From Akkermansia muciniphila ATCC BAA-835 (GTDB taxonomy: Bacteria; Verrucomicrobiota; Verrucomicrobiia; Verrucomicrobiales; Akkermansiaceae): a stretch of 32,000 nt of DNA. Below, piece after piece: positions 1-26,579 of the stretch. Position numbers and translations under genes: made by a program. The notes beneath the pieces are model-generated. The model was not told the DNA's origin and did not search any database. It was given only the letters and a program-made list of their open reading frames with translations. The stretch spans positions 2,010,001 through 2,042,000 of the forward strand of contig NC_010655.1 of NCBI RefSeq assembly GCF_000020225.1. Reading direction: 5' to 3'. Each line of letters starts with the position of its first letter. Within the stretch, counting starts at the first letter, position 1.

Positions 1-88
1 GGGAGGAAGCAAGTTCGGTGCGGGAAACTTTGTTCTCTTCTAACCACCTTCCCAACGTCTGAATATCCAGCGGGCGTTTCTCGTCCAT
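1..88 (-). CDS. Hypothetical protein, N-terminal fragment only (gene runs off the left edge)
   Basis: ATG at 88..86 on the minus strand, open to the window edge (MDEKRPLDIQTLGRWLEENKVSRTELASS...). A GGAGA lies about 11 nt upstream. The fragment is too short for any domain call. Confidence 0.25.
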   Translation of the reverse strand, partial: MDEKRPLDIQTLGRWLEENKVSRTELASS

Positions 89-180
89 GCGGATAATTTT
101 CTCCTATCAGGAGGGCAAATGGAAGAATCCGGGTTATTTATGATTGACAAAATCCTATTAGGATAATAATAGCTCTTTTA

Positions 181-210
181 TTGGACAATATTACATCTCA
201 TTAGGATAAT
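181..210 (+). promoter_or_regulatory. Putative sigma70-like promoter for the OMP gene (TTGGAC, 18 nt spacer, GATAAT)
   Basis: The hexamers sit at 181-186 and 205-210, about 40 nt upstream of ATG 250. The -10 element lies inside the second copy of the repeated 11-mer ATTAGGATAAT. Confidence 0.3.
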
Positions 211-249
211 TCTTTGTCCTCTCTAAGGAATCCAAAACCTAAAAACATC

Positions 250-873
250 ATGAACACGAAAACCATCATCACCAGTTTGGGGCTTATGGGCCTCTCATGT
301 ACCGCACAGGCCGCCTCTAGTGACCCTTGGAACTATTATAGAATGGGAGGGAATTATAGTTCCGCATATTCAACACGGTATGATTCCAATTTTGGAATGA
401 GCATTAGAGGAATGTACGGATTCCATTCGGGGAATGATTATGGAATAGATATGCCAGACCTGTACGGTGCCCAATTAGGACTTCACGCTAACATTCCAGC
501 GGGTTCTGTTTTCCATGAATTATCTTTCAATCTCGGCGCGCTTACAGGTTCTAAAACCTACGAAGGGGAGTTGAAATGGAAACAACAGGTATTCCCATTT
601 ACCGCTGGATATTCTTTTAATGTCCCCTTATCTGATTCTGCCACTTTCTATTTAGGCGGCAAAATAGGCCTTCATTATTATAAACAGGAACTCTCTGGAG
701 GTGGAGGAAAAGTATCTGAGTCTGATTCTAGTGGAACTTACTCGGCATTAATCGGTTTCAAATTTGCTGTTGCAGAAAAAACAGACATCGTTATTGGATA
801 TGAAATAACGAAATACTGGTCAGATGTTGACCCATACCACTTTATCACAGTTGGCTTTAGCTGGTCATTCTAA
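250..873 (+). CDS. Small outer-membrane beta-barrel protein (porin/OmpW-like size class) with signal peptide
   Basis: Signal peptide MNTKTIITSLGLMGLSCTAQA. The sequence has alternating Gly/Tyr/aromatic-rich strands and ends in GFSWSF, the C-terminal Phe signature of beta-barrel OMPs. The TTG at 214 is less likely than ATG 250. The gene is visibly AT-richer than most of the window. Confidence 0.75.
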   Translation: MNTKTIITSLGLMGLSCTAQAASSDPWNYYRMGGNYSSAYSTRYDSNFGMSIRGMYGFHSGNDYGIDMPDLYGAQLGLHANIPAGSVFHELSFNLGALTGSKTYEGELKWKQQVFPFTAGYSFNVPLSDSATFYLGGKIGLHYYKQELSGGGGKVSESDSSGTYSALIGFKFAVAEKTDIVIGYEITKYWSDVDPYHFITVGFSWSF

Positions 874-894
874 CTTTCGGCGGTGAATTAACTG

Positions 895-934
895 GCCTCC
901 TTCCTTTCGGGGAAGGGGGCGATTCTTTGATTTG
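895..934 (+). terminator. Rho-independent terminator after the OMP gene
   Basis: GCCTCCTTCC-TTTCGG-GGAAGGGGGC forms a 10-bp stem with one G.U pair, followed by the T-rich GATTCTTTGATTTG. Confidence 0.6.
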
Positions 935-936
935 CA

Positions 937-1973
937 TGACTTAGGCCGTCGCCTTGCTCGCAAGGTGGCGGTCAATTCTTCAATTCGGCGTAAGTAATTC
1001 TCGTCGAAAATGCTTTAGCCATAAGAGAATCCAATCTTACCCATGTGTGGATTTTCACATTTCCCTCATTCAACCGATACGCAAATTCATCTACATATCT
1101 CTGTAAATGTTTTGTGCTGAATGAATGGTAGATTCCATAGAATCCTCTCTTCAAAACCGCCCATACGCTCTCGATGCCGTTAGTATGGGCCATTCCGTCA
1201 ACATACTGCTTGGCACTATGATTCACCACCTGATGATTGAACTGTGATTCTTTGTAAGAAGCATGTTCATCAGTAACCAGAACGGAATCCCGGCTCAAAT
1301 ACTTATTCAAAACTTGGTGAACTGTATCTCTTGAAGTGTCGGGAATAACCCTTGCTAAAACCTTTCCTGCTCTGGCTCTCATTCCTAAAACCGCTGTCTT
1401 TCCAACAATTCCGCGCCCAGCCTTCAATTTCTGAGATTCGTGCTTATTGGATTCCTTGCCTCCAATATACACCCCATCAGCTTCAACAATTCCAGATAGA
1501 AAGCCGTTATTGTCATCGTCATCATGGTTGGAATTGCATGCTTCCCTAATCCTTTGAAGCATGAACCACGCCGTTTTTTGCGTAACCCCAATTTCCTTGG
1601 AAAGTTGCATGGAGCTAATACCCTTTCTGGAAGTCACTACTAAATAGAAGGCAAAAATCCATTTATGAAGTGGAACATGGCTTCTCTCAAAAATAGTTCC
1701 AGTCCTCACAGTATAAACTTTCCCGCACTCCCCGCATTCAAAATACCCCTCAACCCCGTTCCTCTTTACTCTATACTGTTTTTCGCTTTTCCCGCAGAAC
1801 GGGCAAACTACCTTATCGCCCCACCGCTTTTCCTCTAAATACTTTTTAGCTGATTCCTCATTGGGGAATTTTTCAAAAAGCTCAAAAAGTGAAATAGTTA
1901 AGCGGTCGTTCATGGGTGCCTCCTTAGTATGGCTAATTAATAGCATACGGAGAAACCGAAGTCAAGTATATAA

Positions 1974-13578: not shown

Positions 13579-14619
13579 TTACTTGGTTAAGGATTCGGGA
13601 GAGTTCCTGTCAATGGCTTCTTTGAGGCGTTCCGCCCGCTCCTGCATGTTTTCCAGAATTTTCAGAATATAAGAACGCGTTGTAGCCGAGTGTTCCGCTC
13701 CGCGTACGAAGGAAAGCCCCCGGTACAGTCCTACCGTTTCCAGGCGGAGATTCATATCTTCTCCGGACAGGTCTTCACTGGAGGGAGGAGGATAATTGGA
13801 AGCGGGGCCGTTCAGGGACTTCATCTGCATGGTATCCATATTAAGCAGGCAGCTTTGTATTCCGTTAGTGAAAATCAGGCTGCCCTGACGATGCTTGTCC
13901 TCCGGCCACAGCCTGTAAATGGTAACGGCGCTTCTCCCCCCGGGATTGATCAAAATGGCGGGGAAAACGTGTTTGCCGCCACCCTTTTTCCGGACGGTCG
14001 CGTCAAAATCGCATTCTCCGGAAAACCTGGTCGTGACACGGGAGGAGATGCATACTTCAAAAGGTACTTCCGGCGGCAGGGGAATCATGGTGGCGGCAGA
14101 CAGGGGTGACCCCGGAGGGAGTTCCGGAATCGGGAAGGGAAGCGTAATGATGTCAATGGCGCAGCTGATGATGCCGATGATGGCGAACAGCAGGATGCCT
14201 TTGTTCCGGAGCTGGGCTGACATCATTTTTCCATATTCCTCCGGATAATGCCTGCCTGCGGATGGTTCCTGCTGCAGGTAATAGCCGGTCAGGCGTGAAA
14301 TAACGGCCAGAGCGGCAGCCATGGCTGCCAGCCAAGCCAGGGCAAAAGCCAGATTTTCCGCTATGGGAATTGTGGTGAAAAAGCCGAATGTTCCAATAAT
14401 GACCGCCGTCAGCAGGAGAAAGACGGCCAGGAAGGTTATGCAACCTAAAGGGGCCGTGGAGACGGGAATCCAGAAACTGCTGCGTTTGCCGAGGGCTCTC
14501 AGAATCAGGATGGCAATGCAAAAAGAGAAGATGGCCAGCGTTGAATAAAAATGTTGAAACAGATAATCGAGCATGGCATGCGGGAAAAACTTGGATAGGC
14601 AAGCGGGGAGCGATTCCAT
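13579..14619 (-). CDS. Hypothetical multi-pass membrane protein with C-terminal soluble domain
   Basis: About four hydrophobic helices (e.g. LAIFSFCIAILILRAL, CITFLAVFLLLTAVIIGTFGFF, FALAWLAAMAAALAVI, ILLFAIIGIISCAIDII) are followed by a ~180-aa non-hydrophobic tail. I recognise no family motif. The start is uncertain: ATG 14619, ATG 14574 or TTG 14649. Confidence 0.55.
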   Translation of the reverse strand: MESLPACLSKFFPHAMLDYLFQHFYSTLAIFSFCIAILILRALGKRSSFWIPVSTAPLGCITFLAVFLLLTAVIIGTFGFFTTIPIAENLAFALAWLAAMAAALAVISRLTGYYLQQEPSAGRHYPEEYGKMMSAQLRNKGILLFAIIGIISCAIDIITLPFPIPELPPGSPLSAATMIPLPPEVPFEVCISSRVTTRFSGECDFDATVRKKGGGKHVFPAILINPGGRSAVTIYRLWPEDKHRQGSLIFTNGIQSCLLNMDTMQMKSLNGPASNYPPPSSEDLSGEDMNLRLETVGLYRGLSFVRGAEHSATTRSYILKILENMQERAERLKEAIDRNSPESLTK

Positions 14620-15087
14620 GCCGGTTTCCTGAAAAATATCCGGAAGCAAGCAGTTTTGCGCCGCGAAACGATAGAAGCCGAATGTTGAACTCCTTTATTA
14701 TTTTAGCCTTTTTCCATCCTTGCCTGCAAGATTTTTTGTTTACCTGTTTCTTTCTATTTGTTTTTGATATGTTTAAAAAGCATTGTCCCATAAGAAAATA
14801 TGGGAAAAAACCGACTCCATTTTCATTCAGTGAAAAAGATGCGGTTTTCTATAAGCGGAGGATTCCGAAATGGTAAAACTGTGTGTTATGGATAAGGGAA
14901 AAAGAGTATTCCTGCCATGGAAATGTTTTTTCCCGTTTATGAATGAAACCGCTGCGCCGTCTTTCCCTTCATCCTTTTCAAGAGACCGGGCGGGGAGAAG
15001 AGCCCCAGCCGGATGTTTACCTGCAAGAGCGTGGGGCAGACAGATCCGGCCGGGTTGATGAGGAAAAACGCTTCCCTGAAGAAACTG

Positions 15088-16332
15088 CTACCGCTGTTCC
15101 GGCTTTGCCGGCACTTTCCTGAGTTTCGCGAAGCGGGGCAGGGAACATTCCTTTTGCATGGCCGTTTCTCCCTGGATCAGGGGAAGAACGTAATCAATGA
15201 ACGGCTGTTCCACGCCATTGCCGCGGGCGTTGATCCATTCGCGGGGAACAAGTTTTTCCACATTGGCCACTTCTTCCAGACCTATCAATTTAGTCTTGCA
15301 GGAATAAATGCCGTTCTCCGTGATTCGTTCAAAGGCTACCATTTTATCCGTCTGGCCGGAAACGGCGGCTTCCACGGCGGCTTTTCCCGCCATATACGCT
15401 TCATCGATATCCGTCTTGGAGGCTACATGGGAGGCGCAGCGCTGGAGGAGTGAGAGTTCAATGCTTCTGACTTTGGCCCCGGTTTGTCGCTTGACGGATT
15501 CCGCAAGCATGGCTCCCAGGCCTCCCAGCTGCGTATGGCCGAAGACGTCCCTGTCTCCGGATTCCGCAACAAAGCGGCCGTCTGCATACTGCACGCCTTC
15601 CGAGACGGCGACCATGCAGCTGCCGTTCTGCCTGTAAATCCGGTCCACATCCTGCCAGAATTCCTCCATGCGGAAGGGAACTTCCGGCAGGTAAACCAGG
15701 TCCGGACCTGCTCCCGCATACGTGGCCAGGGCTGCGGATCCGGCCAGCCAGCCGGCGTGGCGGCCCATGATTTCCACAATGGTGACGCGTCCCTTGTCGT
15801 ACACGCGGAGGTCCTGGTGAACTTCCATGCAGGAGGTAGCGATAAATTTGGCGGCAGAGCCGAAGCCGGGGCAGTGGTCCGTGCCGTGAAGGTCATTGTC
15901 AATGGTCTTGGGAATTCCGATGACGCGGCATTCGTAACCGGACTGCTGCATGAATTTGGATATCTTGTTACAGGTATCCATGGAATCGTTGCCTCCGTTG
16001 TAGAAAAAGTAGCGTACGTCGTATTTTCTGAAAATTTCCAGCAGACGGCGGTAATCCGTATCATCCACGGACGGGGCTGCCATCTTGTAGCGGCAGGAAC
16101 CCAGGGCAGATGCTGGGGTATATTTGAGCAATTCCAATTCTCCGGGGTCTTCCCGGGCCATATCGAACAGGCGTTCTTTGAGCACTCCCTCAATCCCGTT
16201 GGCGGCTCCCAGCACGCGCGTGACCTGTTCGCTTTGCAGGGCGGACTGAATGGCTCCCAGTGCGCTGGCGTTGATGACGGCGGTGGGGCCGCCGGACTGG
16301 CCGATGATGCATGCTCCTTTCAATGGGTTCAT
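15088..16332 (-). CDS. 6-phosphofructokinase family enzyme, probably PPi-dependent (Pfp-type)
   Basis: PFK motifs are QSGGPTAVINAS, YNGGNDSMDT, GIPKTIDNDL and MGRHAGWLA. GGNDS replaces the GGDGS of ATP-dependent PfkA. ATG at 16332 (MNPLKGACII) is preferred over 16374. Confidence 0.92.
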   Translation of the reverse strand: MNPLKGACIIGQSGGPTAVINASALGAIQSALQSEQVTRVLGAANGIEGVLKERLFDMAREDPGELELLKYTPASALGSCRYKMAAPSVDDTDYRRLLEIFRKYDVRYFFYNGGNDSMDTCNKISKFMQQSGYECRVIGIPKTIDNDLHGTDHCPGFGSAAKFIATSCMEVHQDLRVYDKGRVTIVEIMGRHAGWLAGSAALATYAGAGPDLVYLPEVPFRMEEFWQDVDRIYRQNGSCMVAVSEGVQYADGRFVAESGDRDVFGHTQLGGLGAMLAESVKRQTGAKVRSIELSLLQRCASHVASKTDIDEAYMAGKAAVEAAVSGQTDKMVAFERITENGIYSCKTKLIGLEEVANVEKLVPREWINARGNGVEQPFIDYVLPLIQGETAMQKECSLPRFAKLRKVPAKPEQR

Positions 16333-17550: not shown

Positions 17551-18651
17551 TTATGCGGAAGGTGCGTGCAGGGAAACGGATTGGCCGGGGTATATTTCCG
17601 GAATGACGGAAATGCTCTTGATATTTTTTCCGGCTGTCAGGGAGCGGAGCATCCGTATGAGCTTGTGAACCGTTTTTGTCTGGTTCTCTTCATAATAGGT
17701 GATCGTGGGCAGCAGGCGTTCCATGAAGGGTTCATACGTCAGGCTGACCAGGCTGAGCTGATCCGGAATGCTCAGCGAACGGGCTTCCACCCAGGAAAGG
17801 ATGGGAACGATCTGGTTGCCCCGTGTGGCTACCAGGGCGGACATATCCGGATGTTCTTTAAACGCTTTGGCCAGGTATTCAAAGAAGAGAGGCGTTTCAA
17901 ACGGGGTGGGAACCAGGATGGGATTCCATCCCTGTTCCGCAAAGCTGAAAAAACCTTTTTGCATGAGCTGGTGGCCCTTCAACGGATCAGGAGGCAGGCA
18001 CAGGCCTACCGTTCGGTGCCCCTTGTTCCAAAGGTGCTGCGCCGCATGATGCGTGGTGGCCGCCCAGTGGCGGTCCAGATAGGGAAGGTTGCTGCTCTGG
18101 TAGGAGGTGCCGCGCACAATGCAGGGGATGCGGTGCGTCTTGAACCAGAGCTGGGTTTGCTCCGAGGAACGGTGAAGTATCCAGCAGACGCATTCGGATT
18201 TGGTAACAAGCTTGGCAAGCCTCTTGTCCGGGTTATTGCCTAAGATCCAGGGAGCTTCAAAGATACGGACGCTGATGCCGTCTTCCTCCAGAATTTTGGA
18301 GATGGTATATATCTCCGCCAATACGCTTTGAGCCAGCCTTTTGAGGGGCTGGGGCGTCAGAAATCCGAGAATTTCTTTTTTTTCCTGAACCGGATGGCAG
18401 AAGATATTTTTAACCGTTTCTTCTTCCGTAGTTTTCAGGATGCGCCTCGGAACCTTGATGCGTGGGGGGGCAATCCATGCATCCCTTTCCAGAAGGGTCA
18501 GGGCCTTTCTGATGGTTTCCCTGCCTACGGATAACCTGTGCCCGAGTTCTCTTTCTCCGGGCAGGATATTGACCAGGCTACCGCTGAGAATCATCTGTTT
18601 GATTTTATTGGCTACTGTTTCAACCAATGAAGAAGCTGGCAACGAAGTCAT
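17551..18651 (-). CDS. GntR-family transcriptional regulator, AraR-like (GntR wHTH plus LacI/PBP type-1 sugar-binding domain)
   Basis: The N-terminal GntR HTH is LPGERELGHRLSVGRETIRKALTLLERDAWI. The remaining ~300 aa have a LacI/GalR-type effector-domain layout. ATG 18651 (MTSLPASS) is preferred over TTG 18723. Confidence 0.85.
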   Translation of the reverse strand: MTSLPASSLVETVANKIKQMILSGSLVNILPGERELGHRLSVGRETIRKALTLLERDAWIAPPRIKVPRRILKTTEEETVKNIFCHPVQEKKEILGFLTPQPLKRLAQSVLAEIYTISKILEEDGISVRIFEAPWILGNNPDKRLAKLVTKSECVCWILHRSSEQTQLWFKTHRIPCIVRGTSYQSSNLPYLDRHWAATTHHAAQHLWNKGHRTVGLCLPPDPLKGHQLMQKGFFSFAEQGWNPILVPTPFETPLFFEYLAKAFKEHPDMSALVATRGNQIVPILSWVEARSLSIPDQLSLVSLTYEPFMERLLPTITYYEENQTKTVHKLIRMLRSLTAGKNIKSISVIPEIYPGQSVSLHAPSA

Positions 18652-19048
18652 ACTCTTGTATATACGTATCGCATTGCGTGAATTCGAGCCAATTGTAGGG
18701 ATTGCCTGCCCCGCAGAATCCAAAAGGAGAGCTGGTGTTGTTGCAAGTTGTTGATATTCTGTAAATCGTTTTAGGATTTAAGCTACTGGTCTTTTTTGAT
18801 GAGGTAAAGTGGGCGGATAATGTATAAATGATATGGTGTTATCAATGCATTACATTCCTGAGCGGTACGGCTGCAGGTGGTTTGTAATTATTTCTTAATT
18901 CATTTAAGATAAATATTTTATTGCGTATTTTGTTGGGCGGAGCCATTTCTTATTCTCCATTTTCTCACTTTCCCCCAATTTCCGCCAGGAAATGTGCACG
19001 TATCGGCATGGATGACTTTTCTCCCGTTTCCGGCACTAAATCTGCTTG

Positions 19049-19333
19049 ATGAAAGTGAATACCATACCGGGCGCATCCTATGCGCTGACTTGTACGGCTG
19101 CGTGTACTATCCATGCGCTTCTTAGCGACGCTTCTTCTCTGGTTATCCTGGAAACGGAAAACCCCGGACAATATTTTTTTATAGCTCCCACTGATACAAT
19201 AGAGGTATCAGACGAACACGCCCTGGTGACACAAACTTTTAAAGCAGCCGCTCCGGGATTGTCTGCCCGCAGCGGCATAAGGCCGGGAGTAAATGCTGAT
19301 TTAAAAAATCCGACGGTGGAAAAAGCGGTATGA
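19049..19333 (+). CDS. Hypothetical small protein (94 aa)
   Basis: An ATG-initiated ORF in an AT-rich intergenic patch, with no recognisable motif. Competing antisense ORFs (18965..19171, 19078..19338) look less protein-like. Coding status is uncertain. Confidence 0.35.
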   Translation: MKVNTIPGASYALTCTAACTIHALLSDASSLVILETENPGQYFFIAPTDTIEVSDEHALVTQTFKAAAPGLSARSGIRPGVNADLKNPTVEKAV

Positions 19334-19552
19334 ACCATTTCTTTTTTCTGATTGCCCGCGATTAAGCGCAGCGCTCATGAGCAATCCGGTCAAAAGGTTG
19401 TTTGTCCATGGTTTTTCGAACCTTTACGGGGAGCGGGACTTCACCGCCAGATCATTGTCTGACGCGGACTGGGTGCGGAAGTCCGTCTCATTCCTTCCTG
19501 AAATTACTACGGGGAAGTCTCTTTGAGAAATGAAGCGTTATCGACTGATAAT

Positions 19553-19592: not shown

Positions 19593-19675
19593 TGGTACCG
19601 CCGGTGGGACTCGAACCCACACTCTTTTGGAACTCGATTTTGAGTCGAGCGCGTCTACCATTCCGCCACGACGGC
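19593..19675 (-). tRNA. tRNA-Leu (anticodon CAA), type II with long variable arm, CCA encoded
   Basis: The minus-strand sequence GCCGTCGTGGCGGAATGGTAGACGCGCTCGACTCAAAATCGAGTTCCAAAAGAGTGTGGGTTCGAGTCCCACCGGCGGTACCA folds by hand as follows. The acceptor stem is 7 bp with two G.U pairs. The anticodon stem is CTCGA/TCGAG with loop CTCAAAA. The T-arm is GTGGG-TTCGAGT-CCCAC. Confidence 0.9.
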
Positions 19676-19858: not shown

Positions 19859-20890
19859 TCACGCCGCCAACTCCCAAAATGCTCGCACCTCGCATCCTCG
19901 AATCCCCTGCGTATGCACATAGCGCGTCTGCAACAGCGTCCCGTCCCGATGCCCCATCGCCGCCTGCAAACGCCCCCAATCGTGAAACATCTTCGCATGA
20001 TACGACGCAAAGGTATGCCGCAGGACGTCCTGACGCCATGTCTGAAAACCCGCTGCCGAGCGCAAAGCGCGCCACCGCCTGTTCCAATCTGGCGGACAGA
20101 TGAAAACCGACTCCCTCTCTGCCCCCTGCGGATAATAACTCCTCAACCATGCCAACACGGAGCGAGACAGCGGCACCTGCCGACCGCCGCCCGTCTTGCT
20201 CTGCCTCGGGCGAATCCGCACCTCCCCCTCCTCCCAATCCACATCGCCCCAGGTCAAACGCCGCACCTCATACGGACGAATCCCGCCGTAGAGCATCATC
20301 ACCACGCCCGCCGCACAGGGGGAAAACTCCTCCCTCTCTGCCGTCCGCAGCAGGCGGCGCACTTCCTCGATACGGAGGGGGACGATCTCCCGCTCCGTCA
20401 CGCGCGGCACATCCACCAGCCGCACGGGATTATGCGCACACCAGCCTTTCTTCCACGCCACCGTGAACACTCCCGAGAGAATCGCCCGCGCATGACGACG
20501 TTGCGAGGGTGAAAGAAAGACTTTCTCCAACACAGCCGCACAGTCCGCCGTCGTCATCGAGCGCATGGGACGCGCCGCCAGATCGGGCACATCTCGCATC
20601 ATCCTCTGCGTGAAGGAGCGGATATCGCGCAGGGTGAGCGCCGAACGGTCGGCCTTGACGCGCAGGGTTTCTGCCACGGCTTTGGAGAAGGAGACCGTTT
20701 GCGTGGCGAGATGCTCGGCTTCGCACCCCAAGGCGATGACGCGGCGGCAGTGAAGGAGCAGAGCTTCTTTCTTTCTTACGGAAGAGCCTCCGCTTCCTTC
20801 GACCAGCTCCAGCATGAGACGAGCAACATCGGTGAGGGAGAAGGGGAGAGAGGCGAGGAGGGCAAGGGCGGTGCTAGCGTCGGTGTTCAT
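19859..20890 (-). CDS. Tyrosine-type site-specific recombinase (phage-type integrase)
   Basis: Catalytic boxes GGIRPYEVRRLTWGDV (Arg I) and VLRHTFASY...AMGHRDGTLLQTRYVH (R, H, Y). The start is uncertain: ATG 20890 (MNTDAS) is favoured because 20891-20950 is AT-rich and promoter-like. Alternatives are ATG 20917 and 20950. Confidence 0.9.
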   Translation of the reverse strand: MNTDASTALALLASLPFSLTDVARLMLELVEGSGGSSVRKKEALLLHCRRVIALGCEAEHLATQTVSFSKAVAETLRVKADRSALTLRDIRSFTQRMMRDVPDLAARPMRSMTTADCAAVLEKVFLSPSQRRHARAILSGVFTVAWKKGWCAHNPVRLVDVPRVTEREIVPLRIEEVRRLLRTAEREEFSPCAAGVVMMLYGGIRPYEVRRLTWGDVDWEEGEVRIRPRQSKTGGGRQVPLSRSVLAWLRSYYPQGAERESVFICPPDWNRRWRALRSAAGFQTWRQDVLRHTFASYHAKMFHDWGRLQAAMGHRDGTLLQTRYVHTQGIRGCEVRAFWELAA

Positions 20891-20978
20891 GGCAACAGGA
20901 TAAATAATACTCTTCATCAAGCCCAAAATAACGAAACTTGTCAAAAACATGGAATGGAACGGTAGTTATGCCTGTATG

Positions 20979-21101: not shown

Positions 21102-23099
21102 ATGAAACATCGAGGGAATGAGGCTTCGGGAGAGACGCAACTCGATGCCTCCCTTGTGGCTATTCTCCTCGCCGACCGTTCGAGCGGCGCTTTCATCCGC
21201 TGGGCCTGCAACGCCTACACTACCCACGGCGAGTCCTATGCGGCGGATCAAGAGATCTACCCCCATCAGGTGCATCTGATTCAGGAGCGCACCCGCAAGA
21301 CGCAGGAAGAACAGCGCGACCGCACCAAAAAATCCGCCGAAGTCTTTACCCCTGCTTGGCTGTGCAACGCCATGATCAACGCCCGCGATGCCGTTTACTT
21401 CGGGCGGGAGGAGGTCTTTAACCGCATGGAGGCTCCATCGTGGACGCCGACGCGCAAGACGATTGACTTTCCGACGACAGCATCTGGCCGCCGTCTCGCG
21501 TGGGAGCGTTACATCGATGCCCGCTGTCTGGAAATCACCTGCGGCGAAGCCCCCTTTCTCGTCTCGCGCTACGATGCCGTCGATGGTCGCCCCATCTCCT
21601 TGGCAGAGCGCATCGGCATCCTCGACCGCAAGCTGCGTATCATCGGCGAGCATACCTGCACCGCAGAGGACTGGTTTCACTGGGCAAAACGCGCCCTCGA
21701 AAGCGCCTACGCTTACGAATACCAGGGCGACAGCCTCTTTCTCGCCCGTCTCAATCTTTTTCTGAGCATTAGCGAGTACCACCGTCACCTGTGGAAACGC
21801 CCCCTCAACCGACACCAACAAGAGGAAGTTGCCCGCATCCTCTCGTGGAATCTCTGGCAGATGGACGGCCTGACGGCGACGACTCCCTTTGCCACGGAAC
21901 AGGGGAAGCCCGAGGATTCCTTATTTGATTTTTACGCCATCACAGCCGAAAGGCGCCCCCTCCGTAGCCTCATCCGCGACTGGCGCGGCAAAAAAACGAT
22001 TCGATTCTCTGAACTCAACCTATCCACCACCATGAAATTTGATTTTGTCATCGGCAATCCGCCGTATCAGCTGGAAACCGCCAATAAATCCCTTTCCAAC
22101 GGACAATTGCCAAGTAAAAGCATTTTTCATCATTTTCAGCTGAGCGCGGATCAGATTTCCTCCGGTCTTACCGTCTTGATTTATCCTGGAGGGCGATGGA
22201 TTCAGCGTTCTGGAAAAGGAATGGCGGATTTCGGCTTACAACAAATCAATGACAGCCGTTTACAAACCTTGTATTATTACCCCGACAGTACCGATCTCTT
22301 CCCTGCACAAGTTGCCGAAATTGCGGACGGCATCTCCATTGTGGTCAAAAATGCCCACAAGACGACCCCAAGCTTCCGCTACTTCTATATGCGGCGCGGA
22401 GAAAAAACAGGTGTCGAGCTGGAGCCTCCCGGCGAAAATATCCTTCCTCTAGACCCACGCGACGGAGCCGTTGTCAGGAAAATCGAGGATTTTGTTCAAA
22501 GAAACAAGTTGCCTTATTTGAACGATAATGTGCACTCAAGAAATCTATTTGGAATTGAGAGTAATTTTGTCGAAAAAAATCGAGATCAGGTTCGCCTCTA
22601 TCAAGAAGGGGATGCGGTAGATTGCGAGACGGAGATCAAGCTATATGCTAATGACCGAGCCGGGAAAGCTGGCAGAACGACATGGTTTGTTGCACCAAGA
22701 AGCATTATTCAGACGAATGAGGCTTACATCTCCAAATGGAAGGTTGTTGTTTCCAGTGCAAACGCCGGGGGACAAAAGAGAGATTGGCAGTTGGAAATCA
22801 TCGACAATCAATCGGCATTCGGTCGTTCGAGGGTTGCTCTTTCTTCTTTTGAAACGAAGCAGGAAGCGGAGAATTTTTACCACTATGTGAAGAGCTATAT
22901 TATTCGCTATGCCTTCCTGATGACGGATGAAGCTCTGACAACTTTGGCGCTGAAAGTGCCGGATATGTCAGATTATACTTCTGACAACAAGTTAATCGAC
23001 TGGTCGCAGGATATTGATAGTCAGTTGCAGAAGCTCATGTCCCTCAGTGATGCTGAGTTTGAATACATCAAAAACACGGTGCAGAGTGTACGAGCCTAA
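21102..23099 (+). CDS. N6-adenine DNA methyltransferase, gamma-class (Eco57I/TaqI-like order X-I-IV-TRD) with C-terminal target-recognition region
   Basis: Motif X is AEVFTP (residues ~79-84) and the motif I-like segment is LEITCGEAPFL (~143-153). Motif IV is DFVIGNPPY, with NPPY at nt 22056-22067. The ~340-aa C-terminal half has TRD-like features (SSFETKQEAENFYHYVKSYIIRYAF). No nuclease domain is evident. Confidence 0.85.
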   Translation: MKHRGNEASGETQLDASLVAILLADRSSGAFIRWACNAYTTHGESYAADQEIYPHQVHLIQERTRKTQEEQRDRTKKSAEVFTPAWLCNAMINARDAVYFGREEVFNRMEAPSWTPTRKTIDFPTTASGRRLAWERYIDARCLEITCGEAPFLVSRYDAVDGRPISLAERIGILDRKLRIIGEHTCTAEDWFHWAKRALESAYAYEYQGDSLFLARLNLFLSISEYHRHLWKRPLNRHQQEEVARILSWNLWQMDGLTATTPFATEQGKPEDSLFDFYAITAERRPLRSLIRDWRGKKTIRFSELNLSTTMKFDFVIGNPPYQLETANKSLSNGQLPSKSIFHHFQLSADQISSGLTVLIYPGGRWIQRSGKGMADFGLQQINDSRLQTLYYYPDSTDLFPAQVAEIADGISIVVKNAHKTTPSFRYFYMRRGEKTGVELEPPGENILPLDPRDGAVVRKIEDFVQRNKLPYLNDNVHSRNLFGIESNFVEKNRDQVRLYQEGDAVDCETEIKLYANDRAGKAGRTTWFVAPRSIIQTNEAYISKWKVVVSSANAGGQKRDWQLEIIDNQSAFGRSRVALSSFETKQEAENFYHYVKSYIIRYAFLMTDEALTTLALKVPDMSDYTSDNKLIDWSQDIDSQLQKLMSLSDAEFEYIKNTVQSVRA

Positions 23100-23114: not shown

Positions 23115-26100
23115 ATGAACACCATCAACATCCGAAGCACGAAGAAGGTTGAGCCGAAGTGTTACGCCTACACGACTCCAGAGGTGCAGCGGCACGAGGG
23201 CTGGACGAAGATTGGCTACACCGAGCAGGATGATGTCGAGGTGCGCATCCGCCAGCAGACGCAGACGGTGGATGTGCGCTATTGCCTGGAATGGCACGAG
23301 TCGGCGCGTTTTGCCGACGGGACGGTGTTTCACGATAAGGCGTTTCATCGTTACTTGGGCAAGAAGGAGGTGGAACGCGAGGGGAATTCGGAGTGGTTTC
23401 ATCTTGTGCCCGAGGTGGCGCATGGTCATTTTCGGGAGTTTACCCGCAATCGCGGGGTGTTGCAGACGCCGGGTGCGGTGCCTTATGTGTTGCGGGCGGA
23501 GCAGGCGGAGGCGGTCGAGCGGACGCGGCTCTATATGGCGAGCCACGCGGGGCAAAGCCCGGAGTTTTTGTGGAATGCCAAGCCGCGTTTCGGCAAGACT
23601 TTGGCGGCGTATGATTTGTGCAAGCAGATGGGTGCGCGGACGGTGTTGATTGTGACGAATCGTCCGGCGATTGCTCATTCGTGGTACGATGATTATGTGC
23701 GTTTTATGGGGACGGAGTCGGGGTATTATTTCATCAGTGGGGCGGATGCTCTGCGGGGCTTGCCCCATGTGCTGGAGCGCGCGCAGTTGCCGAGTGATGC
23801 CGAGGGGTATATCGAGTTTGTGTCTCTGCAGGATTTGAAGGGTTCTCTGTATTTCGGCGGGGAGTTCGATAAGTTGGAGCATGTGCAAAAGTTGACCTGG
23901 GATCTGCTGATTGTGGATGAGGCGCACGAGGGGGTGGATACGTACAGGGCGGATGTGGCGTTCGAGCAGATTGCGCGTCGGGCGACGCTGCATCTGTCGG
24001 GGACGCCTTTTAAGGCTTTGGCAAATGAAAAGTTCGAGGAGAAGGCGATTTTCAACTGGACCTATGCCGATGAACAGCGCGCCAAGAGGGAGTGGCAGGA
24101 GGAGGCGGAGGAGGAAAATCCCTATGCCGCCTTGCCGCAGTTGGACCTTTATACGTACCGGATGTCTGAGGTAGTGCGCGATCGCCTGAAGCAGGGGGCT
24201 GATTTTGACGATGACGGCGAAAATGAGGCCTATGCTTTTGACTTGAATGAGTTTTTTGCCACGAAGAGTGACGGTTCGTTTAAGTATGATGAGGCGGTGG
24301 AGAGGTTTTTGGAGGCTTTGGCAGGGCAGGAGAAGTTTCCCTTTTCGACGGAGGCTTTGCGCCGCGAGGTGAAGCATAGTTTCTGGCTGTTGGACCGCGT
24401 GGACAGTGCCAAGGCGTTGGCGAAGAAGTTGAAGGCGCATCCCGTCTTCCGCGAGTACGAGGTGGTGGTGGCGGCTGGCGATGGCAAGACGGATGCGGAG
24501 GAGGAGGCGACATCGACGCTCAAGTCCTTGGATAAGGTGCGCACGGCGATTCGCGCCCACGAGAGGACGATTACGCTTTCCGTCGGGCAGTTGACGACGG
24601 GGGTGACGGTGCCGGAGTGGACGGCGGTCTTGATGCTGAGCAATGTGAAGAGTCCGTCGCTGTATATGCAGGCGGCGTTCCGGGCGCAGAATCCCTGCCT
24701 GTTCGTGGAGGGGGACGAGTTGCGGCGCAAGGAGAATGCGTATGTGTTTGATTTTGAACCGGCGCGGACGCTGGTGATTTTTGAGCAGTTCGCCAATGAC
24801 CTGTGTTCGGCGACGGTGAGTGGCGGAGGCGATGGGGAGACGCGCAAAAGGCAGGTGCGCGAGTTGCTGAATTTTTTCCCCGTCTATGGGGAGGATGAGG
24901 AGGGGGAGATGGTGGCTCTGGATGCGGAGAAGGTGTTGTCCGTGCCGCGCAAGATTCATGCCGTCGAGGTGGTGCGCCGTGGGTTCATGAGCAATTTCCT
25001 GTTCCAGAATATCGGGAATATTTTCTCGGCGCCGCGTCAGGTGGCGGATATCCTCGGGCAACTGCCGACGGTGAAGGAGCAGAAGCCGTCCAAGGCGAAG
25101 GAGGGCGGTCAGGGAGAGGGCGGTTTGTTGGACGGCGCCGCGGATTTGCCCCTGAATGAAAAGGGTGAAGTGGTGTTGCCCTTGGATGAATTGACCCGTA
25201 AGACAGGGGAGCTTTTCGGGGATAAGATATACAGCGACAATGTTGTGACGCAAACGAAGATCGATGAGGTCTCGACGAGTAACGCGCCGGATAAGAAGGC
25301 CGCACAAAATTTAGTGACGATATTGGTGGATACTGTGGTGAACCCCACCCTGCAGGATGCCAAGACGCACTATGGCGATGAGATGAGTAGAGCGTCTGAA
25401 CATCGTCTCAAAAAGCAGTTGCAGAATCAGGCGACGGTCGCGGTCGGCAAGGCAGCGACGACGCACAAGAAGAATCGCCACGAGACGGAGAAGGCAAAGA
25501 AAAGGGCTCTCGACGAGGCGCATGCCAAGGGGCAGAGTGAGGCCGAGGTTCAGGCGATTCAGGATCGTTTTGATGCCGAGCAGAGGGAGAATGAGCGTCG
25601 GTATCGAGAGGAGTTGAAGGAGGCAGCGGCAGAGATTGAGAAGAAGGCCAAACAGGCTGTGGTGGATACGGTGGAAACCGAGAAGGTTACCAGGAAGAAG
25701 GAGGCGATTGAAGAGGATATTCGCGGTCATTTGCGTGGCTTTGCGCGGACGATCCCCGCCTTTTTGATGGCGTATGGCGACGAGAATACCTGTCTGGATA
25801 ATTTCGATACGATTCTTCCCGATGAGGTCTTTAGAGAGGTGACGGGGATTTCTTTAGAGCAGTTCCGCATCTTGCGCGATGGGTGCGATTACGAAGATGA
25901 GGGTGTCCGGAAGCATTTTGACGGTCATTGTTTTGATCCGATTGTTTTTGATGATGCCGTTCAGGAGTTCTTGGCGTTGAAGAAGAAATTAGGCAATTAT
26001 TTTGATGAGTCGCAGTCGGAGGATATTTTCGATTATATTCCGCCGCAAAAGACGAATCAGATTTTCACGCCCAAGCATCTTGTCATGAAGATGGTCGATA

Positions 26101-26447
26101 TGTTGGAGGAGGAGTCTCCGGGCTGTTTCGATGACCCCGACAAGACGTTTATCGACCTCTACATGAAGTCGGGTCTATATGTGGCGGAGATTGTCAAACG
26201 CCTTTTCCGCAGCGAGGCGATGAAGGCGCGTTTCCCGCAGGCGGAGGAGCGTTTACGGCATATTTTCGCGCATCAGGTGTATGGCTTGGCGCCGACGGAG
26301 ATTATTTACCGCATTGCCTGTGCCTTTGTCCTGGGCTTCGACGAGGAGCTGCGCATCGAGCGGCATCATCTCGCGCGCTTCGATGCCTTGCCGGCGGTCA
26401 AAGACGGCACGCTGGAGGAGGCTCTGGACAAGATTTGGGAGAGGTGA
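23115..26447 (+). CDS. Fusion protein: N-terminal GIY-YIG superfamily (T5orf172-like) domain, SF2 DEAH helicase/translocase, charged coiled-coil, C-terminal methyltransferase-like (motif X/I only) tail
   Basis: - AAGGAG RBS 8 nt upstream; the gene starts 15 nt after the methyltransferase stop.
- GIY-YIG-like pattern: CYAYT...WTKIGYT...VRIRQQ...FHDKAFHRYL...GNSEWF (residues ~15-100).
- Helicase motif I NAKPRFGKT, motif II LLIVDEAHEG, motif III HLSGTPF, motifs V/VI SVGQLTTGVTVPEW and QAAFRAQNP.
- Lys/Glu-rich helical stretch around nt 25450-25730.
- Tail from nt 26061: IFTPKHLVMKMVDML...FIDLYMKSGLYVAEI...QVYGLAPTEI, with no NPPY-type motif IV. Confidence 0.85.
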   Translation: MNTINIRSTKKVEPKCYAYTTPEVQRHEGWTKIGYTEQDDVEVRIRQQTQTVDVRYCLEWHESARFADGTVFHDKAFHRYLGKKEVEREGNSEWFHLVPEVAHGHFREFTRNRGVLQTPGAVPYVLRAEQAEAVERTRLYMASHAGQSPEFLWNAKPRFGKTLAAYDLCKQMGARTVLIVTNRPAIAHSWYDDYVRFMGTESGYYFISGADALRGLPHVLERAQLPSDAEGYIEFVSLQDLKGSLYFGGEFDKLEHVQKLTWDLLIVDEAHEGVDTYRADVAFEQIARRATLHLSGTPFKALANEKFEEKAIFNWTYADEQRAKREWQEEAEEENPYAALPQLDLYTYRMSEVVRDRLKQGADFDDDGENEAYAFDLNEFFATKSDGSFKYDEAVERFLEALAGQEKFPFSTEALRREVKHSFWLLDRVDSAKALAKKLKAHPVFREYEVVVAAGDGKTDAEEEATSTLKSLDKVRTAIRAHERTITLSVGQLTTGVTVPEWTAVLMLSNVKSPSLYMQAAFRAQNPCLFVEGDELRRKENAYVFDFEPARTLVIFEQFANDLCSATVSGGGDGETRKRQVRELLNFFPVYGEDEEGEMVALDAEKVLSVPRKIHAVEVVRRGFMSNFLFQNIGNIFSAPRQVADILGQLPTVKEQKPSKAKEGGQGEGGLLDGAADLPLNEKGEVVLPLDELTRKTGELFGDKIYSDNVVTQTKIDEVSTSNAPDKKAAQNLVTILVDTVVNPTLQDAKTHYGDEMSRASEHRLKKQLQNQATVAVGKAATTHKKNRHETEKAKKRALDEAHAKGQSEAEVQAIQDRFDAEQRENERRYREELKEAAAEIEKKAKQAVVDTVETEKVTRKKEAIEEDIRGHLRGFARTIPAFLMAYGDENTCLDNFDTILPDEVFREVTGISLEQFRILRDGCDYEDEGVRKHFDGHCFDPIVFDDAVQEFLALKKKLGNYFDESQSEDIFDYIPPQKTNQIFTPKHLVMKMVDMLEEESPGCFDDPDKTFIDLYMKSGLYVAEIVKRLFRSEAMKARFPQAEERLRHIFAHQVYGLAPTEIIYRIACAFVLGFDEELRIERHHLARFDALPAVKDGTLEEALDKIWER

Positions 26448-26579
26448 CCGTGATGACGGCCTGGCTTGGGAGGCTTCATGTCTTGCGCCGCTCCCGTTGA
26501 ATGAGTGGCGCGGCTTAATTTCCGGCATGTTTCTTTGTGTTTCATGTGCGCAAGCCGATGAAAATTCATGGTTGGCGTT

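Follow-up and report, generated by a model that had tools for sequence, protein, structure and literature searches.

Why would the restriction subunit of a restriction-modification (R-M) system end in the first part of a DNA methyltransferase and stop just before the catalytic motif? The question is raised by two genes in a stretch of 32,000 nucleotides from Akkermansia muciniphila ATCC BAA-835 (contig NC_010655.1, positions 2,010,001 to 2,042,000; "the window", in which positions are counted from the first letter), namely the modification gene P0002 (M) and, 15 bases beyond its end, the restriction gene P0001 (R). An initial annotation regarded the C-terminal tail of the R protein either as a degenerate methyltransferase lobe that docks onto the separate methylase, or as the remnant of a longer nuclease-helicase-methylase fusion truncated at the right edge of a genomic island. 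Here we find that the tail is truly homologous to the front half of γ adenine methylases of the Eco57I/TaqI type, which comprises motifs X to III and strands β1 to β3 and ends exactly at the half-domain boundary. The tail is a fixed, selected module of DrdVI-type, presumably ATP-dependent R-M systems and not a remnant.

The tail represents a KSG-type front half, with Lys-Ser-Gly in the loop of motif I, while P0002 carries a front half of a second, M1 type. The gene, the tail and its motifs are located as follows:

23115..26447, +, R gene P0001, a single open reading frame (ORF) of 1110 amino acids: GIY-YIG/T5orf172 nuclease, superfamily 2 (SF2) helicase, charged linker, coupler and KSG-type methylase front half
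26019..26444, +, KSG-type methylase front half, residues 969-1110 (own KSGhalf profile, E 2e-59; BLASTP to NPPY-bearing relatives), including the flagged stretch 26061-26447
26061..26105, +, motif X IFTPKHLVMKMVDML, residues 983-997, with FTP at 984-986
26148..26192, +, motif I variant FIDLYMKSGLYVAEI, residues 1012-1026, in which Lys replaces the first Gly (DLYMKSG); aligns with LEPxAGxGxF of M1 halves
26274..26303, +, motif II-like strand QVYGLAPTEI, residues 1054-1063, with Ala-Pro at the position of the ribose-binding acid of γ methylases
26370..26390, +, motif III-like strand LARFDAL, residues 1086-1092, including RFDAL at 1088-1092
26445..26447, +, natural stop codon of P0001, about 12 residues short of the position of MKFDxVIGNPPY in fused relatives

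The stretch flagged initially corresponds to residues 983-1110, position 26061 being in the codon of I983, and the conserved unit exceeds it, since it starts at about residue 870 with a helical coupler that is followed by EDIFDYIPPQKTNQ. The strings IFTPKHLVMKMVDML, FIDLYMKSGLYVAEI and QVYGLAPTEI are all present in the tail as the initial annotation had quoted them, and the protein indeed stops before any (N/D)PPY motif: the whole of P0001 contains no (N/D/S)PP(Y/F/W) and thus no catalytic loop of motif IV. The 130 bp after the stop codon, said to encode nothing similar, likewise gave no match to a methylase back half, even in an hmmsearch with all filters off and our own profile of the NPPY half.

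Standard domain libraries are silent on the tail. The last 250 residues of P0001 have no Pfam match, neither N6_Mtase nor Eco57I matches the protein at E <= 1, NCBIfam gives no methylase match on the tail, and phmmer searches of the PDB with P0001, its tail or a tail profile returned nothing useful. The methylase-like reading was upheld by homology to NPPY-bearing proteins, to the N-terminal part of M2.DrdVI (see below) and to the M1 profile. The last 151 residues align with the stretch directly before NPPY in NPPY-bearing proteins (BLASTP, E 1e-35 to 1e-47), where NPPY lies 12-16 residues past the end of the alignment and about 135-145 residues separate FTP from NPPY. A comparison of the tail profile with the profile of M1-type front halves in hhalign yielded a probability of 92.7% (E 4e-7), the 117 aligned columns stretching from motif X as far as motif III, and MAFFT by itself placed motifs X and I of M1 on the KSG half (FFDPYMKSGLYIAEIVKRL versus ILEPTAGDGIFLVGILERKL). 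The KSG and M1 halves are thus paralogous, and the constraints on them differ. Two features linked to binding of S-adenosylmethionine (SAM), the G-x-G of motif I and the acid of motif II, are absent from the tail, which conserves K1018-S-G and A1059-P instead.

The degree of conservation was determined for 210 terminal and 154 NPPY-linked KSG halves:

T985, 99% of terminal and 100% of NPPY-linked halves
P986, 99% and 98%
D1014, 100% and 98%
K1018, 98% and 100%
S1019, 98% and 99%
G1020, 100% and 100%
Q1054, 100% and 100%
A1059, 96% and 92%
P1060, 97% and 100%
D1090, 98% and 94%

The loop F-x-D-L-Y-x-K-S-G-x-Y is common to terminal and NPPY-bearing forms, and therefore the exchange of Gly for Lys is a trait of the family rather than a sign of decay. 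Since the residues are equally fixed in both classes, selection acts on the KSG half independently of whether β4 follows in the same chain.

With residues 860-1110 as query, more than 7400 proteins were retrieved. Among the full-length matches listed, which are 1091-1124 amino acids long at 96-100% query coverage, the tail is 66-71% identical, while the identity over the whole protein is 56-61%; the constraint on the tail is thus no weaker than that on the motor. When all fetched proteins were compared by BLASTP, members of the terminal class were seen to end 0-13 residues past the last aligned position. Residues 870-1110, used in an exhaustive HMMER search, gave 827 cluster representatives, many of which are 1360-1560 amino acids long with the tail in an internal position, and some 600-1000 amino acids long with the tail near the N-terminus. 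In these longer and shorter relatives the tail runs directly into a Pfam Eco57I domain, and in P0187 the Pfam domain N6_Mtase covers residues 1039-1193, i.e., the KSG half from FTP through NPPY. Of the 396 proteins fetched, 139 show the KSG-NPPY succession, more than any other covalent arrangement. One relative of 1381 amino acids, P0132, consists of R, coupler and KSG half plus 284 residues after the latter, which match none of our profiles and contain no NPPY.

A FastTree phylogeny of coupler plus KSG half was built from 118 representatives with M2.DrdVI as root. NPPY-linked forms branch at its base, the majority of terminal forms, P0001 among them, make up one large clade, all-in-one forms are nested within that clade, and further fissions are scattered. 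The evolutionary order read from this rough tree is suggestive only, as the deep supports range from 0.37 to 0.9. Given that longer nuclease-helicase-methylase fusions exist and branch at the base, descent of P0001 from a fusion is plausible, albeit as an old and not a local event.

If the tail is a methylase front half that ends on purpose, which back half does it belong to? The adjacent M gene contains one, and its parts are listed here together with the remaining domains of the R protein:

21102..23099, +, M gene P0002, 665 amino acids (Pfam Eco57I, E 1.5e-14); M1-type front half fused to an NPPY back half with target recognition domain (TRD)
21309..22001, +, M1-type front half of P0002, residues ~70-300 (M1half profile, E 2e-93), with EVFTP, LEITCGEAPF, AYEYQGD and WQMDGL
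22032..23096, +, back half of P0002, residues 311-665 (NPPYhalf profile, E 2e-125); begins MKFDFVIGNPPYQ, NPPY at 22056-22067, followed by a TRD-like part
23166..23420, +, GIY-YIG-type (T5orf172) nuclease domain of P0001, residues 18-102 (Pfam PF10544, E 5e-4, 20.9 bits, cut-off 20)
23487..25034, +, SF2 helicase/translocase core, residues ~125-640 (Pfam ResIII at 125-299, E 2.7e-11; alignment with R.DrdVI, residues 11-635)
25722..25994, +, helical coupler, residues ~870-960 (own profile match 872-965, E 1e-45; aligns with R.DrdVI 713-800)

The M1 half of P0002 has the features of a SAM-binding lobe. F82, T83, P84, E144, G148, E206 and D255 are invariant or nearly so among 41 M1 sequences, and M1 halves retain the G-x-G/A loop, the Glu of motif II and the Asp or Asn of motif III. 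The back half is found in other genomes as a separate gene beginning exactly at MKFD. The corresponding Met311 of P0002 (22032-22034) is retained inside most aligned fused genes, some of which have Val or Leu (compare the split starts at L004:4187 and L082:6474); no Shine-Dalgarno sequence precedes Met311 in P0002, and nothing therefore points to internal initiation at this codon. In PADLOC, M1 half and back half are each represented by an MTase_II model of their own, and both models match P0002, one on each half. Searching with the M protein gave more than 5200 homologues. P0002-type methylases (about 60% identity) are very common in A. muciniphila assemblies, one cluster occurring on at least 1000 contigs, and the system seems to exist in several alleles within the species.

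On P0001, our own profiles place R helicase, coupler and KSG half. The T5orf172 assignment is accompanied by calls of the same Pfam domain in relatives, and PADLOC files the protein weakly under a Type IIG model. The coupler always lies N-terminal to the KSG half and also forms the C-terminus of R.DrdVI.

The layout of the locus can be compared with that of DrdVI. DrdVI is encoded on plasmid pDrdVI of Deinococcus wulumuqiensis NEB 479 (NZ_CP031164), the three genes of which we translated. M1.DrdVI (212 amino acids) contains EVFTP, LEPACGSGNF, YGIEL and HGDAL without NPPY, M2.DrdVI (539 amino acids) begins with EVFTP...FLDPCTKSGVF and continues with NPPY and a TRD, and R.DrdVI (851 amino acids) ends with the coupler and is devoid of a methylase-like tail. 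The Akkermansia proteins match module by module:

P0002 70-258 with M1.DrdVI 5-137, E 8e-7: the M1 half, here fused to the back half
P0002 301-665 with M2.DrdVI 192-536, E 2e-20: the back half with NPPY and TRD
P0001 967-1068 with M2.DrdVI 14-119, E 4e-12: the Lys-Ser-Gly half, here on R
P0001 11-635 and 836-920 with R.DrdVI, 34% identity, BLASTP E 4e-88: the R subunit with GIY-YIG and SF2 domains

The Akkermansia system accordingly consists of the four modules of DrdVI with other borders, the KSG half being attached to R and not to M2, and M1 being fused to the back half. Where DrdVI is laid out as M1 / KSG-back half / R without tail, the order in Akkermansia is M1-back half / R-KSG. A gene of Bibersteinia with an M1-like N-terminus and an M2-like C-terminus (PMC4996451) has the layout of P0002.

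Are both front halves a constant part of such systems? For an answer, loci were mapped with our profiles of R helicase, coupler, KSG half, M1 half and back half. As far as these profiles tell, every system appears to comprise an R unit with coupler, a KSG (Lys-x-Gly) half, an M1 half and an NPPY/TRD back half, cut and joined at module borders. The KSG half led to 80 loci, one genome per species, from Bacteroidota, Bacillota, Saccharibacteria, Chloroflexota, Planctomycetota, Moraxella and others, and 66 of them contain an M1-half gene. Each of the 14 loci without M1 has less than 1.2 kb of flanking sequence on at least one side, and M1 is present in all 51 loci with at least 1.2 kb on both sides, loci from many phyla in which the four modules occur together; its stop or start codon often overlaps the neighbouring gene.

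At least six permutations of the modules were seen. A plasmid of L. plantarum LP2025_7 carries M1 (annotated as "hypothetical") next to an R-coupler-KSG-back half protein of 1417 amino acids, and a plasmid of L. plantarum A8 carries M1 (annotated as "restriction endonuclease"), R-coupler-KSG and the back half as three genes, the last of which starts precisely with MKFDVVVGNPPYQ and shows both a TAATG overlap and the Shine-Dalgarno sequence AAGGAG. Loci L082-L084 have the order M1 / back half / R-coupler-KSG, and six proteins unite everything in one chain, R-coupler-KSG-M1-back half. Public records list the M1 halves at L004:1-888 and L003:1784-2704 under the names "restriction endonuclease" and "hypothetical protein".

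The reverse search started from the M1 side and covered 401 Verrucomicrobiota genomes, from which 28 regions were fetched. In 25 of these, R contains a KSG or divergent Lys-x-Gly half, or is part of a long R-to-back-half fusion of the type in which such a half is found, and the remaining three are cut by contig ends. The KSG half was found by profile in 13 of the 28 regions; another 12 encode an R-to-back-half fusion of 1310-1460 amino acids that the KSG profile missed. Eight of these 12 fusions were read by eye and show ETVLTPW...ILEINSKSGLYP or IVTP...LDIASKQGEF, with Lys-x-Gly retained. The middle part of a divergent sister family in Verrucomicrobiota (L120, L124-L135, L137 and L138) thus escapes both the coupler and the KSG profile, and consequently absence of KSG by profile is unreliable. 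Taken together, the 51 loci with sufficient flanks and the 25 M1-side loci make both front halves look obligatory.

Two further loci deserve mention. In L131, which belongs to the same genus as the window, two ORFs that encode only a back half (14199-15263 and 18350-19471; NPPY plus TRD, 355 and 374 amino acids) lie downstream of a system of the M1 / R-back half type and may be spare or alternative specificity modules. Plasmid pTEF3 of E. faecalis V583 has an orphan coupler-KSG-back half gene (L002:5053-6891) between copies of IS256 and IS1216, with neither an R nor an M1 gene in the 12.8 kb read, and looks like a decayed system.

How two front halves might share one back half can be considered on the basis of AlphaFold models of P0202 and of P0002 alone, which were read through the first and last aligned residues of structural alignments. 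P0202 is a natural chain of 815 amino acids with the order coupler-KSG-M1-back half, and its KSG half is 50% identical to the tail of P0001. The model (mean predicted local distance difference test score, pLDDT, 78; predicted template modelling score, pTM, 0.65) shows in the KSG half a helix (198-211) after FTP, β1 (222-225), αA (232-243), short helices (245-250 and 254-265), β2 (266-270), αB (273-284), β3 (295-297) and αC (300-317), at a pLDDT of about 90. The KSG half is thus predicted to possess motif X and the β1-β3 order of a Rossmann fold. The M1 lobe (339-458) has three strands as well and is flanked by low-confidence linkers (319-335 and 453-470).

The alignments pair the KSG half with the back half. 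With FTP of the KSG half at residue 195, M.TaqI 20..409 aligns with residues 193..775 of the P0202 model, the M subunit of EcoKI (150..469) with 193..585, METTL5 with 180..573 (184 residues aligned, root-mean-square deviation 3.3) and KsgA with 185..573; the first two alignments begin two residues before FTP of the KSG half, and those with METTL5 and KsgA 10-15 residues before it. CamA matches the model with a Z score of 19.5, LlaBIII 825..1200 aligns with 161..582 (Z 17.5, 245 residues) and LlaGI reaches a Z score of 18.1. The part of P0202 that corresponds to the coupler has its structural counterpart in the helical domains at the N-terminus of HsdM-type, DrdV and LlaGI structures, alignments to the HsdM type running from the coupler onward.

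In the model of P0002 (mean pLDDT 79, pTM 0.74), the alignment for which held no KSG-bearing rows, it is the M1 lobe that completes the fold: M.TaqI 20..413 aligns with residues 80..626, EcoKI M 150..470 with 80..453, and CamA with a Z score of 22.3 over 430 residues. A linker (266-284) has a pLDDT below 50. Residue 150 of EcoKI M aligns two residues before FTP in both models, indicating that AlphaFold accepts either front half as the N-lobe.

In our view, the best explanation, to which we assign a probability of roughly 55%, is that the tail joins R to the shared back half, with the KSG lobe taking the place of M1 as N-lobe. P0002 alone would be a complete methylase that marks the host DNA. 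R, which lacks a DNA-reading part of its own, would acquire one by binding P0002 via the coupler/KSG tail. The KSG lobe would most likely sit in the N-lobe position beside strand β4 of the back half, and the M1 lobe, borne on a long linker predicted to be disordered, would be displaced. The complex formed in this manner would recognize the same site but transfer methyl groups poorly or not at all, and it would license translocation and cutting of unmodified DNA. Two features make it probable that KSG replaces M1 beside β4: either lobe can complete the modelled fold, and the linker that carries M1 is long and floppy. The docking lobe suggested at the outset comes close to this explanation. What did not stand is the idea that Gly-to-Lys denotes decay, as K-S-G is 98-100% conserved, and the lobe turns out to be one of two paralogous front halves.

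Several points weigh against such an exchange of lobes. It is drawn from two AlphaFold models seen via alignment ranges, the fold of the P0001 tail is taken from the 50%-identical half of P0202, and the pairing in the latter may be biased by an alignment with ten KSG-NPPY rows and seven rows covering M1. P0002 is predicted to be complete alone, so that the tail may dock elsewhere. The published DrdVI and MaeIV clones do not separate the roles of the two front halves. Moreover, the KSG half may still bind SAM; M.TaqI too is devoid of the first Gly of motif I.

The exchange of lobes could go further and act as a switch between modification and restriction. The back half would then form a methylase with M1, and with the Lys-x-Gly lobe a non-methylating site reader that licenses translocation and cutting, the invariant Lys filling the cofactor site and helping to probe whether the flipped adenine lacks a methyl group. 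We advance this extension only tentatively. If it is true, the ratio of the two front halves would set the balance between self-protection and attack.

Among the alternatives, the one that survives best leaves P0002 intact and has the KSG lobe bind another surface of P0002 or DNA, as a rigid adaptor or pseudo-second subunit comparable to METTL14 or to the Mod protomer that takes no part in catalysis in Type III enzymes. The modelling of P0002 alone as a complete γ methylase (CamA and M.TaqI alignments above) speaks for it, as does the retention in M1 of the G-x-G/A loop, the Glu of motif II and the Asp of motif III, while KSG has neither the acid nor the first Gly. However, conservation of 94-100% at motif X, at the Asp of the loop and at that of motif III would not be expected of a plain adaptor, the 12-16 residues between KSG half and NPPY in most relatives represent the normal spacing of αC and β4, and KSG occupies the N-lobe position in the model of the all-in-one P0202. 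We consider docking at another surface rather unlikely.

Less probable still, and in our opinion a distinct outsider, is a catalytic domain split in trans, where KSG is the true N-half of the active methylase, methylation in Akkermansia needs the R tail, and M1 has a regulatory or SAM-sensing role. The prevalence of the KSG-NPPY arrangement, its basal place in the tree and the preference of AlphaFold for KSG over the adjacent M1 as partner of the back half in P0202 fit such a division, but the KSG half has Lys in the glycine loop and no motif II acid, the whole SAM-binding set is held, strongly conserved, by M1, and the model of P0002 is complete in the absence of KSG. Dependence of a methylase on the nuclease subunit would also be out of the ordinary where the subunits are separate, although for the single-chain enzymes of Types ISP and IIG it is the norm.

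Local truncation of a longer gene, or a pseudogene at the right edge of the island, is rejected: longer fused relatives do exist, and P0001 is the last gene of an island that bears a putative integrase and lies beside a tRNA-Leu gene, but the full-length homologues listed (about 1100 amino acids) share the end point and the conserved tail, as the alignment suggested in the initial annotation revealed, P0002 next door encodes a complete back half, and no remnant lies downstream. The tRNA-Leu(CAA) gene is located at 19593-19675 (-), and a long ORF (19859-20950, -) precedes the M/R pair. A comparison of the tRNA-Leu region with the island's right end (26448-26579) gave no direct repeats of at least 10 nucleotides.

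In the literature, the family is known only as the "split methylase" type of DrdVI and MaeIV. Both enzymes have been termed "split methylase/RM genes", and R has been described as a GIY-YIG translocase fusion (PMC6430315, PMC4996451, PMC10113651). M1 plus M2 of DrdVI or MaeIV, cloned in Escherichia coli, produced N6-methyladenine on one strand of the asymmetric sites GCAGCC and GCACY; R is not named among the cloned genes, and all three methylase modules were present each time (PMC6430315, PMC10113651). No description of a two-front-half design or of a constant second front half was found in the literature searched, the scope of which lay outside REBASE and most subscription journals.

The translocating R-M enzymes of Types I, III and ISP share the problem that one DNA-reading module has to serve a methylase and a nuclease motor. 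The DrdVI-type family seems to solve it by splitting the methylase fold and keeping two alternative front halves, which, if confirmed, would constitute a new principle of R-M assembly and a natural case of half-domain complementation. The family is large, with more than 7400 homologues of the tail and more than 5200 of M, and occurs in gut Akkermansia, lactobacilli, enterococcal plasmids, bacteria of the candidate phyla radiation and others. Its parts presently go under labels such as "DEAD/DEAH helicase", "hypothetical protein" and "restriction endonuclease", the last of these for an M1 half. Correct annotation bears on the assignment of methylomes and on the genetic tractability of the carrier organisms.

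A catalytically dead methylase-like unit that is kept for assembly or substrate handling is familiar from METTL3-METTL14, DNMT3A-DNMT3L and the Mod2Res1 complex of Type III enzymes. The partners in these complexes are whole folds, in contrast to the Akkermansia tail, which is half a fold and appears able to complete the fold of another protein. The best structural matches of both models are enzymes of the Eco57I/TaqI type, CamA (7lt5), M.TaqI (2np6/1g38) and M.BseCI (7qw5), with which the tail shares motif X and the β1-β3 order. Unlike these enzymes it is devoid of motifs IV-VIII and of a TRD, carries K-S-G instead of G-x-G and Ala-Pro in place of the acid of motif II, and remains below the Pfam thresholds for methylases. 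With the Type ISP enzymes LlaGI and LlaBIII (PDB 5ffj, 4xqk; PMC3553950, PMC2790908) the system shares the order nuclease, SF2 translocase, coupler, γ methylase and TRD. Yet a Type ISP enzyme unites an Mrr/PD-(D/E)xK nuclease and a single complete methylase domain in one chain, whereas in Akkermansia the functions are spread over two genes that divide the methylase fold before motif IV, the N-terminal domain matches T5orf172/GIY-YIG, and a second, paralogous front half is present. Relatives of about 1400 amino acids approach the Type ISP layout, yet still need a separate M1 gene.

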